In this document: positions 25,301 to 64,000 of the stretch, one piece after another | How the letters are laid out: each line of letters begins with the position of its first letter | Position numbering within the stretch: the first letter of the stretch is position 1 | Assembly: GCA_951406725.2 (NCBI GenBank) | Contig: OX597830.1 | Span: 31,744,001-31,808,000 of the forward strand | Direction: 5' to 3' | DNA from: Octopus vulgaris | Taxonomy: Eukaryota | Length of the DNA stretch: 64,000 nucleotides | Notes under the pieces: model-generated | What the model saw: only the letters and a program-made list of their open reading frames with translations | What the model was told of the DNA's origin: nothing | Databases searched by the model: none | Made by a program: the position numbers and the translations under genes

Positions 25301-25811
25301 TACTTGACAGAGCAAAAATGTGATACAAACTTAAACCTGAAGGCATCATTGAAAATGATAGTGCAAAGATCCTATGGGATTTTATGATTCAGTGCAACCA
25401 TGAGATAGAGAATAGGAAGCCAGACATAGTGTTAATTGAGAAAGGAAACAAACTATGCTGGATCATAGATATAGCATTCCCAGCTGACAATAAGGTATGT
25501 GATGAGGAAGAAAGAAAAGTTGAGGGATATGACAGGTTAGCTTGGGAGGTTAAGCAGTTGTGGCCGATGAAAAAGGTGGTAGTAGTACCAATAATTGTCG
25601 GAGCCCAGGGAACAGTGAGTAAAAATTTTGAGAAGTACATGGAACAAATAGGGGCTGCAATAAGGGTGGAGCACTTGCAGAAAACAGCACTGCTTGGAAC
25701 TGCTCGAATACTCCGGATTGTGCTCGAAAGATAAGGGGTGTCACCTTAGTTCACTGGTAGTGAACAGCTGGCACCGTAGTACATCTCCAGTGTTAGAAGC
25801 TGTGCAAAGGC
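25301..25811 (+). mobile_element. 5'-truncated R4/Dong-type LINE: RLE domain plus 3'UTR, inserted in (AAT)n
   Basis: ORF 25384-25734 reads KPDIVLIEK..IIDIAFP..EVKQLW..VVPIIVGAQG..LQKTALLGTARILR (PD-(D/E)xK endonuclease of RLE LINEs), preceded by KILWDF. AAT/AAC arrays on both sides. Confidence 0.92.
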
Positions 25812-41599: not shown

Positions 41600-41644
41600 T
41601 GAACTAGTACTTTCATGCATTAAACTATGCAATCTTCAGGTTCA
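41600..41644 (-). ncRNA. Minimal type I hammerhead ribozyme
   Basis: Minus strand: TGAAC-CTGAAGA-T-TGCAT-AGTTTA-ATGCA-T-GAAA-GTAC-TA-GTTCA. Stem I TGAAC/GTTCA, stem II TGCAT/ATGCA, palindromic stem III AGTACT. Confidence 0.8.
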
Positions 41645-47901: not shown

Positions 47902-47992
47902 TTTTAGTACAATTGTTTCATACAAAGACAGGCTTTATTACAAGTTGCAAAAATTGCAGCAGATAAAAGTGTCCCGTACTCATCAGCTAAAA
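47902..47992 (-). ncRNA. Type I hammerhead ribozyme with a 60-nt stem II
   Basis: Minus strand: TTTTAG-CTGATGA-[GTACGGGACA...TGTCTTTGTAT]-GAAA-CAATTG-TA-CTAAAA. 6-bp stem I, palindromic stem III, GUA triplet. Confidence 0.85.
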
Positions 47993-59127: not shown

Positions 59128-59341
59128 CAGCAAAGGGGTTGCTATGTGATAATCAGAAAGAGTGACAGGGGATTCTGTGAAAGAGGAAGGAGACACAGAA
59201 ATGGTGATTAAAGAGAAAAATACACAGTCATGAACAGGTAGACAAAGGTGAGAATGTGTTATGTATTTATGTATTTGTTTACAGGCATAAAATACACACA
59301 CAAGTGTGTGTATATATGTATATAGATATATATATATATAT

Positions 59342-59479
59342 AGGTGCATCCATGGCTATGTTCTAGGAAGCTTGCTTCCCAATGACATAGTTCCGGGTTC
59401 AGTCCCACAGCATGGCACCTTGGGCAAGTGTCTTCTACTTGTGAGTGGATTCGGTAGACAGAAACTAAAAGAAGCCCGT

Positions 59480-59516
<37 letters not shown>

Positions 59517-59790
59517 GCATATATTAGTATGTGTGTGTTGTGTGTGTGTGCATGTGTGCGCATGTGTGTGTGTGTGTCTGTGTTTGTCTTCTCACCATTG
59601 CTTGACAACTGATGTTGGTGTGTTTATGTCCCCTGTAACTTAGCAGTTCAGCAAAAGTGACCGATAGAAAAGTACTAGGCTTACAAAGAATAAGTCCTGG
59701 GGGTCGATTTCTTTGTCAAAAAAAAAAACCTTCAAGGTGGTGCTCCAGCATGGCTGCAGTCAAATGACTGAAACAATAAAAGAGTAAAAG
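59342..59790 (+). mobile_element. SINE family A
   Basis: Family motifs. Confidence 0.88.
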
Positions 59791-59809
59791 ACTAGAAGAA
59801 TATATATAT

Positions 59810-60126
59810 ACAAAATTTAGAGGACTGAACACTAAAAGTGGACAGCCTATATGCTAAACATAGACGTCAAATCACCATTTACCACGAAGAATGTGTTCTC
59901 AAGAAAAATCTCAGCAAAAAACCAAAGTGTAAAAATAAGCAAGACACATGAAAATATATGAAATGAAAAACGATTACCTATGTACCAATTGGTTTCACTT
60001 GTTAATATTTACATATATAGATATGCAAACATCTGCAAGATCATCAGCATAGTCTGTCGTTTACAAAACACAATTTCCAGAACTAGATACAGAATGCTCA
60101 ACCGAAATCCTGGATTTCGGTTGAGC
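59810..60126 (-). mobile_element. Hammerhead-bearing Penelope-like pLTR or retrozyme-type fragment ending in a 31-bp palindrome
   Basis: Contains the hammerhead at 59978-60052. Bounded by (TA)n on one side and GCTCAACCGAAATCC-T-GGATTTCGGTTGAGC (60096-60126) on the other. Confidence 0.6.
59978..60052 (-). ncRNA. Type I hammerhead ribozyme with an extended stem I and a 44-nt stem II
   Basis: Minus strand: (AAACGA-caga)CTATG-CTGATGA-T-CTTG...CAAG-T-GAAA-CCAATTGG-TA-CATAG(gtaa-TCGTTT). Confidence 0.88.
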
Positions 60127-60406
60127 CCATCATATATGTGTGTGTTTATCTGTTTGTGTTTGTGACTGTCCTCCCACCAATTGGCAAATAGTGTTGGTTT
60201 GATTCCATTATTTAATTCTTTGGCAAAAGAGACCAAACAGAATATATACCAGACTTTGAAAAAAATGGGTTGTGGCATTGATTGGTTCAACTAAGTTCCT
60301 TCAAGGCAATGCTTCAGCATGGCCACTATCCAACATTTGAAACAAGCAAAAAATAAAGAACGTTAAATGATACATACTTGAGAGACTTAGATTTAGTGAG
60401 ATATAC

Positions 60407-61982: not shown

Positions 61983-62153
61983 TAAAAAGCACCCACTACA
62001 CTCACAGAGTGGTTGGCGTTAGGAAGGGCATCCAGCCGTAGAAACATGGCCAGATCTGTCTGGGCCTGATGCGGCCTTCCGGCTTCACAGACCCCAGTTG
62101 AACCGTCCAACCCATGCTAGCATGGAAAGCGGACGCTAAATGATGATGATGAT
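61983..62153 (+). mobile_element. Family C copy nested in the LINE
   Basis: TAAAAAGCACCCACTACAC...GGAAGGGCATCC...GGACGCTAAATGATGATG. Confidence 0.88.
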
Positions 62154-62676
62154 AAAGCTTTTTTCTTCTGCTTTGATATAGTCTTGGCAACTCATCAAAC
62201 CTCTGCCACCCTTTCTTCTGGACAAGTACAGCCTATCAGTGTCTCTTTTAAGGTGGAAGACTCCTTGTACTTTGAGCATTTTGTCTGGTTTTAGTTTTCA
62301 TTTTAATCACTTCTCTCCTTTGCCATCTTATAATTTCCATTCTATACCATCGCTCATGTATTAACTGCTTGCATTTTATTCCATCCATTCAATTTTGAAT
62401 GCAACACCAGCCTTAGTCTTGAGAAATACTCCACCCTCAGTTGCTCTTTCATTTCCTTTTTCCATTATCTCGTCGAACTTTAGTACACTAAAGTATTTGT
62501 AGCCTTCTGTTTCAATTTGTTTAATCAAGTCTCTACTTGGTAATTTTATCCCTGCTAGGGACTGTACCTTGCCTCTTTTTAGGTAGATTATCCTGCCCTT
62601 CTTGAGTCCAAATTCTATTCCAATATCAGTACTAAAACAGTGGACTGTGCTCACCAAGGAAGTCACTCGTGTCTCA

Positions 62677-62969
62677 GTCTTTATTTCATAAAATTGGCCA
62701 TGGCGGTATTACAAAGAGTAGGGTCACAGCAGGTCCTCATCTCATGGAGAGTACATGGCGTAAAATGTGTGCGGAACCTAGCAACACTATTTTCTGAAGT
62801 TCTCCCACATTAACACTGCAAGGGAATTTTTTGAGCTGCTTATCAAGGCCCTTTTTAATTAGCCCTAATGCTCCAATCTCCACTGGTGCTGTGCTGCTTT
62901 TCATTCCCCACAACTTGGTCACTTCTATTTCTAGGTCTTTGTACTTAAATAACTTCTCAACTTCTTTAA
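62677..62969 (-). mobile_element. Nested 5'-truncated RLE LINE (endonuclease C-terminus plus 3'UTR) with a 7-bp TSD
   Basis: IKEVEKLFKYKDLEIEVTKLWGMK..IGALGLIKKG..LQKIVLLGSAHILRHVLSMR*. TGTCTCA at 62670-62676 and 62970-62976. Confidence 0.92.
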
Positions 62970-64000
62970 TGTCTCATCCTTGCTACACAGTTTCAAATCA
63001 TCCATGGAGACAGTTGGTTGTTTGGGAATTTGCCTTTAGTTGGTACCCCAGGTTCATTTTCCTAAGTACCAAGGTCAGGGATATAATGCAGAGAACAAAA
63101 AGTAACGGGGATAAACTATCACTCTGGAAAATTCCTCTTATGATCCCCAGGGTGCCCAAGCTTTTCCCATCAGATGTCTCTTCAGGAAACACATTACATT
63201 CCTCGCAATTCCTCACAGATCTAAGCACTCAATGATCCACGAATGTGGAATCATATCATAAGTTTTGCGATAGTCAATCTAGGCCATTCCCAAATGTGTT
63301 CTCCTTCGTTTACAATCTTACATTACCATTCTATCTATCAATAATTGATCTTTGGTACCTCTGCATCTCCTTCTTTTTGTTCCATTGGTAATATATTGTT
63401 CTCATCAAGGAATTTGTACAGTTCTTCTGTAATTCCTCCTGGCAGTAATTTCCACATTAATGAGAGGCAAGAAACTGATCTGTTATTGTCAGCAGCATTC
63501 TTCAGACACAACACCGTTTATCCAGACACAACACTGTTCTTAGGACACAACAACATTTAACAAAGCTAAAACTGTCATATCAAAAACTGTCATATCAAAA
63601 AAAAAAACAAAAACAGAAATGAATATCATCTGAGATTGATGCATTTCCACTTAGTTACAAGTGTCTATAAGAAAATCCAATGAAATACTTTGAGCATCGA
63701 AGATACCTTAGCTTACAGTTAATGATCATAAAGATAACCTACATCCAAAACACAATTTGATTAAGCAATCCTGTTAAATCAGATATCTGGATAATTTACA
63801 AATACATACTAGGCAAAAATTTTTCTATAGTTTCAACAAGTGGTATCGTTACCTAAGTAACAATTAATTGGTTAAGTTTATTCTTAGAATTTGACATGAA
63901 ATACTGTTACCAAAACACTACTCATAGGAACCTTACATTTTGCAAAATGAGATACCAACATTAAGAATTCTGAAATTCATAAGATTACAAGCACATGAAA

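Follow-up and report, generated by a model that had tools for sequence, protein, structure and literature searches.

The question raised by this locus is whether its minus strand encodes a genuine self-cleaving hammerhead RNA and, if so, whether a single copy could cleave alone or two copies would have to act together. The window, i.e., the complete 64-kb stretch of Octopus vulgaris DNA analyzed here, consists of animal DNA in which (TA)n tracts and SINE copies abound. An earlier note on this stretch had described a hammerhead with an extended stem I and had suggested that this variant may be competent for cleavage as a monomer.

Structure of the Hammerhead Motif

Comparison of the minus strand with the hammerhead core consensus (C3 U4 G5 A6 N7 G8 A9, G12 A13 A14 A15.1, U16.1 H17) revealed 0 mismatches at 59968-60062, and the predicted fold arranges three helices around this core with the open end in helix I, corresponding to the type I layout (Table 1). 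The elements described in the earlier note were recovered. Stem I (CTATG/CATAG) continuing past a 4x4 internal loop into AAACGA/TCGTTT was found element by element on the minus strand, stem II (CTTG/CAAG plus a 12-bp hairpin with two G-U pairs) was found in the sequence as well as in the pair list of the fold, and the cut proposed at the GUA site, between 59982 and 59983, is correctly positioned according to sequence and consensus. The same applies to U10.1/U11.1 reported in place of G-C, which were located at 60040 and 59997. Stem III had been left undescribed.

Table 1. Coordinates of the hammerhead motif, of the repeat carrying it and of two further motifs in the window.
Feature	Position	Strand	Basis or remark
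Dispersed high-copy ~300-bp repeat with ribozyme	59809..60110	-	Deep contig cover in 4/4 runs, dropping at both ends
(TA)n tract at 3' end of repeat	59800..59810		Loose contig ends; 47 X1 contigs enter TA repeats
Perfect 15-bp fold-back, 1-nt spacer, centred on boundary 60110	60096..60126		
Type I hammerhead motif including extended stem I	59968..60062	-	Sequence and fold
Distal stem I, AAACGA/UCGUUU, 6 bp	60062-60057/59973-59968	-	Pair probabilities 0.81-0.99 in 111-nt construct
Stem I 4x4 internal loop, CAGA/GUAA	60056-60053/59977-59974	-	Fold
Proximal stem I, CUAUG/CAUAG, 5 bp	60052-60048/59982-59978	-	
Core C3-A9, CUGAUGA	60047-60041	-	Position 7 = 60043
Core G12-A13-A14-A15.1, GAAA	59996-59993	-	
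U10.1 and U11.1	60040 and 59997	-	U·U at base of stem II
Stem II, two-part, spanning 44 nt	59997..60040	-	U·U, 4 bp, 2x2 loop, G·U, 12-bp hairpin
Stem II, proximal, CUUG/CAAG	60039-60036/60001-59998	-	
Stem II, distal: 2x2 loop, G·U pair and 12-bp hairpin with two G·U	60032-60021/60016-60005 (hairpin)	-	Pair list
Stem III, 10-nt palindrome	59993-59984	-	As monomer 3 bp and AAUU loop
Predicted cleavage site after GUA	between 59983 and 59982	-	G16.2-U16.1-A17 = 59985-59983; hammerhead consensus (PMC3088659)
Second type I hammerhead, palindromic stem III, long stem II, G10.1·U11.1	47902..47992	-	Descriptor
Third type I hammerhead, palindromic stem III, U10.1·U11.1	41600..41644	-	Descriptor

A paired 10.1-11.1 position, usually G-C, is absent from the motif, which features U·U instead. 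Since U10.1-U11.1 has been published as a tolerated natural variant, being described as the best-tolerated mispair (Perreault et al. 2011, PMC3088659), the motif was classified as a U·U variant and not as canonical.

The hammerhead also represents the minimum-energy fold of 59960-60070 (-24.4 kcal/mol, z -2.1), with 3 of 200 shuffled sequences folding equally well. For the plus strand of the same stretch a comparable z of -2.17 was obtained, so folding energy alone does not choose the strand. Screening of 59700-60300 against Rfam yielded five matches at E values up to 10, the hammerhead family being represented in none of them, and for the entire 64-kb window microsatellite-driven microRNA look-alikes were found among the 150 of 501 matches listed. 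Judged from its sequence, the hammerhead motif at 59968-60062 is genuine and of type I, and self-cleavage is predicted for it.

Chance Expectation and Further Motifs in the Window

A descriptor scan of the window retrieved three type I motifs (at 60052, 47992 and 41644), all of which are located on the minus strand and possess a palindromic stem III; the palindromes of the other two motifs comprise 8 and 6 nt. Among 900 windows shuffled block-wise (2-, 3- and 4-let), any motif occurred in 3 and a palindromic one in 0. The motif count is far above chance. Relaxing the descriptor by allowing one core mismatch gave nothing beyond the same three motifs in the window.

The earlier note had likened the U·U state of the motif to that of the copy at 41600. 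U·U is indeed common to both, but they are not the same repeat: 59968-60062 produced no self-BLAST match and aligned poorly with 41600-41644, as it did with 47902-47992. The three motifs thus appear unrelated at the sequence level. In all three, position 11.1 is U rather than C, and (TA)n tracts lie nearby. The own folds of 47902-47992 and 41600-41644 are weak.

The core of the motif also lies within a 21-codon open frame (60060-59998) containing Y-A-D-D-L-A, which we take to resemble the active site of a reverse transcriptase (RT). Accordingly, the motif might be a look-alike originating from a decayed LINE RT, an origin that is considered extremely improbable. The 21 residues gave no Pfam match and no alignment to the nearby RT-like frame, for which reasons the active-site interpretation was rejected. 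Moreover, the frame is closed by a stop at either end, the stretch is part of a defined 300-bp family featuring a compensatory change, and the window holds two unrelated motifs built in the same way.

A prokaryote genome scan returned 0 loci, and two metagenome scans returned 0 and 1 locus. The single metagenome locus (L001) was rejected as a chance match, being GC-rich, matching over 21 bases and missing the 3' half of the hammerhead. A scan for sigma-70 promoters and terminators is irrelevant for an animal and just re-found the fold-back at 60110.

The Repeat Carrying the Motif

Contigs of four runs (4 of the 24 listed, bearing three organism labels) were mapped at 80% likeness. In total, 3756, 1555, 1611 and 590 contigs per run matched, these totals including approximately 40 bp of flanking SINE. 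Relating depth to single-contig depth, 750-3500 copies were roughly estimated, depth not being equivalent to copy number. Run X10 possibly represents RNA and possibly DNA, and its cover says nothing on expression.

Among the 24 of 601 loose contig ends listed, ends were located at 59800 and 60110. At 59800, contigs enter TA repeats with mixed flanks. Past 60110, 27 X1 contigs share one continuing sequence; the window does not contain it, and it probably represents the body of the parent element. Furthermore, 10 of the 15 contig joints listed (of 18) connect opposite strands, 3 of these at 60110, and head-to-tail joints were not among them (0/15); each joint stands for one contig per run, and short contigs can miss tandem arrays. 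Self-BLAST detected no tandem copy of the repeat within the 64-kb window. In a linear fold of the whole element, the window copy is not unusually self-paired (z -0.37).

These features bear on the possibility that the repeat is a solo unit of a tandem non-LTR retrozyme making a circular RNA of ~300 nt. Its length is within the range of 170-400 nt, and also within the 150-450 bp of tandem retrozyme units bearing one type I hammerhead each, and retrozymes are known in a mussel (PMC7229834). A preprint traces retrozymes to pLTRs and describes solo monomers as common (bioRxiv 10.64898/2026.07.22.740005), for which reasons this interpretation overlaps with the preferred one outlined below. Nevertheless, the joints listed include no head-to-tail case, the 3' end enters (TA)n with mixed flanks, a tandem copy is missing from the window, and the fold of the whole element is unlike the highly self-paired circles published for retrozymes. 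A retrozyme unit is therefore regarded as rather unlikely.

The ribozyme repeat is flanked by two members of an abundant SINE-like family on opposite strands (59311-59810 and 60137-60377), the second of which is strongly decayed. Within this decayed SINE, a 9-base part of the stem III palindrome recurs at 60176-60184, 192 bases off, probably by chance. Elsewhere in the window, broken frames are located at 62150-63500 (minus strand) and 25324-25734 (plus strand), which resemble relics of a LINE reverse transcriptase and a restriction-like endonuclease; Pfam gave no relevant match for them.

Variation within the Family

The variants considered here are the 40 of 62 rows listed, each amounting to 8% or more in one or more runs; the others are probably rarer. 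In these rows, 10 of 302 places in the window copy depart from the majority state. Eleven variants affect paired positions, and the pair is kept in 9/11 cases on the minus strand and in 6/11 on the plus strand, corresponding to p of about 0.05 (base rate 32/60 transitions; a two-sided change was counted twice). This two-sided change affects 60024/60013, where A-U in the window copy is replaced by G-C in 90% or more of family depth. The variant at 60060 results in G·U in distal stem I.

The earlier note had made its reading dependent on family copies preserving the pairings. They mostly do so, including the stem I extension, but pairing breaks at two sites, namely 59971 (1-12%) and 59986. At the latter position, the majority letter (60-84% of depth) replaces the third stem III pair by C·A. 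The letter of the window copy is the minority allele, accounting for 16-40% across the four runs, and completes the 3-bp stem III.

Conserved core places are invariant among the rows listed (0/12 variable, p 0.19), position 7 (60043) being variable. Likewise, 0/12 internal-loop places vary compared with 2/4 places in the terminal loop (p 0.19; rows listed), and for conservation at the domain level p was 0.15. Positions 10.1 and 11.1 show no variant among the rows listed; U10.1·U11.1 is the family state, which answers the question that the earlier note had raised on this point. Overall, the variation agrees weakly with a conserved structure, the statistics not being strong alone.

Predicted Folding of One and Two Copies

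All fold predictions are based on nearest-neighbour calculations, in which tertiary contacts are ignored. For the window copy, the predicted hammerhead share amounts to 0.27 in the 111-nt construct and to 0.02 in the whole element. Stem I is predicted to hold at 0.88-0.90 while the transcript ends at 59950-59940 and to collapse beyond 59900. Helix III is marginal, showing predicted pair probabilities of 0.44-0.48 in the window copy and 0.00 with the majority letter at 59986. With the latter, the predicted hammerhead share decreases to 0.0002, because core bases 3-7 (60047-60043, CUGAU) pair with the stem III strand 59985-59989 at 0.79-0.97. In the window copy, the same helix is predicted at 0.39-0.48. 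The pairing between CUGAU and the stem III strand possibly represents an off state, or chance.

The minimum-energy fold of two copies, obtained without constraints, is a double hammerhead of -60.0 kcal/mol versus -48.8 kcal/mol for two monomers (11.2 better). In this predicted structure, the stem I strands are swapped and 10/10 stem III bases are paired across the copies. Energies of forced double hammerheads were set aside, the forced structure being unchecked. In the dimer carrying the majority letter, stem III is not predicted to form, and with the cores held open -48.4 was obtained versus -50.6 for two monomers. This modelled result would count against a simple dimer model, which leaves it unexplained. 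Moreover, just 1/9 predicted Xenopus retrozyme dimers cleaved according to the preprint cited above (10.64898/2026.07.22.740005), which counts against the dimer reading here.

Cleavage as a monomer by way of the canonical stem I loop contact, as suggested in the earlier note, was not supported. The canonical contact of fast type I hammerheads is made between helix I, of 6 bp, and the loop capping a helix II of 4 bp (PMC4209133), but stem II of the motif has no terminal loop at the required place, its sole candidate for such a contact being the 2x2 internal loop. The monomer idea is further weakened by the perfect palindrome of stem III, by the prediction of a double hammerhead for the dimer and by the third stem III pair, which is present in just 16-40% of family depth. 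In an alternative version, the 4x4 loop of stem I would dock with the 2x2 loop in stem II, enabling fast single-copy cleavage at low Mg2+. Nearest-neighbour folding ignores tertiary stabilization of this kind, and the version is in line with the hammerhead being the minimum-energy fold of the 111-nt construct, with a well-formed stem I in short transcripts up to 59940 and with the invariance of the internal-loop places. Moreover, retrozyme monomers from a coral and a mussel reach ~0.8 and ~0.1 per min, respectively, the mussel RNA being devoid of most canonical loop bases (PMC7229834). On the other hand, the hammerhead share nearly vanishes with the majority letter, which locks the core, and the rival helix competes even in the window copy. 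U·U additionally weakens helix II, and an axolotl U·U monomer cleaved to 22% in one hour, its dimer performing far better (PMC7229834). Fast monomer activity of the window allele is therefore possible but unlikely and not favoured. Based on the modelled folds, the window copy could cleave slowly alone. A high-copy cephalopod family missed by Rfam and relying on an internal-loop to internal-loop contact in place of the loop 1-loop 2 contact, with the majority allele silenced by pairing of CUGAU to the stem III strand until a partner or protein opens it and the minority allele active as a monomer, is considered quite improbable.

The majority allele, which disrupts the palindrome and leaves the core locked in predictions for both monomer and dimer, would also fit a ribozyme that is dead family-wide, the master copy having lost stem III function before amplification and the motif being carried passively. 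The conservation statistics, none of which is significant, are compatible with such a loss. However, the core is unchanged in the rows listed, pairs are kept mostly on the ribozyme strand, and the intact allele persists in 4/4 runs. A dead family is accordingly judged very unlikely.

Proposed Lifestyle and Probable Penelope Link of the Element

Based on motif structure, repeat anatomy and predicted folds, the locus is probably best explained as a type I hammerhead in a likely Penelope-like pLTR or solo derivative, cleaving mainly as a two-copy double hammerhead. For a Penelope-derived element with the retrozyme variant counted in, confidence is high.

Two motifs in a full or tandem element would pair via their palindromic stem III and exchange the strands of stem I. 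Cleavage after GUA would free an RNA of unit length for reverse transcription. The majority of insertions, the window copy included, would be single end pieces in (TA)n and probably inert. Owing to its minority allele, which completes stem III, the window copy may cleave slowly alone in vitro, like axolotl HHR_Amex2.

For Penelope-like elements, (TA)n targets have been described, as have 5'-truncated copies lying inverted beside the pLTR (PMC8557442). The insertion anatomy of the repeat, with its (TA)n end, inverted joints and fold-back at 60110, fits these elements. Screening of 39 of 475 candidate segments against Pfam identified no RT or GIY-YIG frame beside any of the three motifs, yielding two weak irrelevant matches below the cut-off, so the Penelope link is inferred from insertion anatomy. 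The motif does not match the published Penelope consensus; because the extra base after A9 and G10.1-C11.1 are absent, it was not classified as a consensus min-HHR. The Penelope-type palindromic helix III/loop 3 is perfect in the window copy and imperfect in 60-84% of family depth. Penelope-like DNA has been reported to account for 6.83% of the Octopus vulgaris genome (190 families), the annotation as available to us mentioning no ribozymes (PMC13282606).

Significance

With these results, the cephalopods gain a large repeat family carrying a hammerhead, and no fewer than two additional families within 64 kb. Rfam misses the window motif, and Rfam-based hammerhead counts are therefore probably too low. 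The literature searched yielded just one such count for this lineage, 235 Rfam hammerhead matches in the giant squid (PMC6962438). Furthermore, the two stem III alleles provide a natural pair for comparing monomer and dimer cleavage. The U·U variant and 3-bp palindromic stems III were known already; as far as can be judged from sequence data, the family would represent a further example of a known element type. The current picture of hammerheads and Penelope-like elements would change only if an atypical tertiary contact or a switch between conformations proved real.

Comparison with Known Hammerheads

In the literature on hammerheads in octopus and cephalopods, mainly open-access texts, the family is not described, which does not establish its absence from print. 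The part of the PMC4209133 supplementary listing that was searched contains no octopus hammerhead, and no mollusc is named in the accessible text of the 2026 preprint (10.64898/2026.07.22.740005), in which animal retrozymes are traced to pLTRs.

Compared with canonical fast type I hammerheads, helix I of the motif comprises 5 bp, and helix II runs via a 2x2 loop into a long hairpin. The U10.1-U11.1 hammerheads described in PMC3088659 share the mismatch but differ in hosts and architecture.

Non-LTR retrozymes of Mytilus galloprovincialis (PMC7229834) likewise represent a mollusc system with ~5000 type I motifs, repeats of 350-390 bp and most canonical loop bases lacking. They are tandem, expressed as circles and were measured to cleave as monomers. 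Axolotl HHR_Amex2 (PMC7229834) resembles the motif in its type I layout, the U·U at the base of helix II, the short helix III and a unit of ~300-350 bp. Its helix III is more stable, and weak monomer but strong dimer cleavage was measured for it. Moreover, the axolotl units are tandem, give rise to circular RNAs and feature a contact between loop 1 and loop 2, whereas the octopus repeat looks dispersed, has a (TA)n end and lacks a terminal loop 2 near the core.

Penelope-like hammerheads are characterized by a palindromic helix III, a long helix II and a short helix I, and thousands of them occur dispersed, with several families per genome (PMC4209133; PMC6765202). Helices III of 3 bp with palindromic tetraloops are listed for Aedes and Saccoglossus in the supplement of PMC4209133, the Penelope-associated hammerheads of Aedes aegypti having a 3-bp stem III and a palindromic tetraloop. 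The motif described here differs from Penelope pLTR hammerheads in U10.1·U11.1, the two-part 44-nt stem II, the continuation of stem I past an internal loop and the GUA site, and no ORF link was seen for it among the 39 segments screened. It resembles the metazoan pLTR hammerheads with a small palindromic helix III, as described for Aedes aegypti and Drosophila (PMC4209133), in the type I layout and the 5-bp helix I, and shares with them the long helix II, the occurrence as thousands of single dispersed motifs, the presence of several unrelated families in one genome and the predicted action as a dimer.
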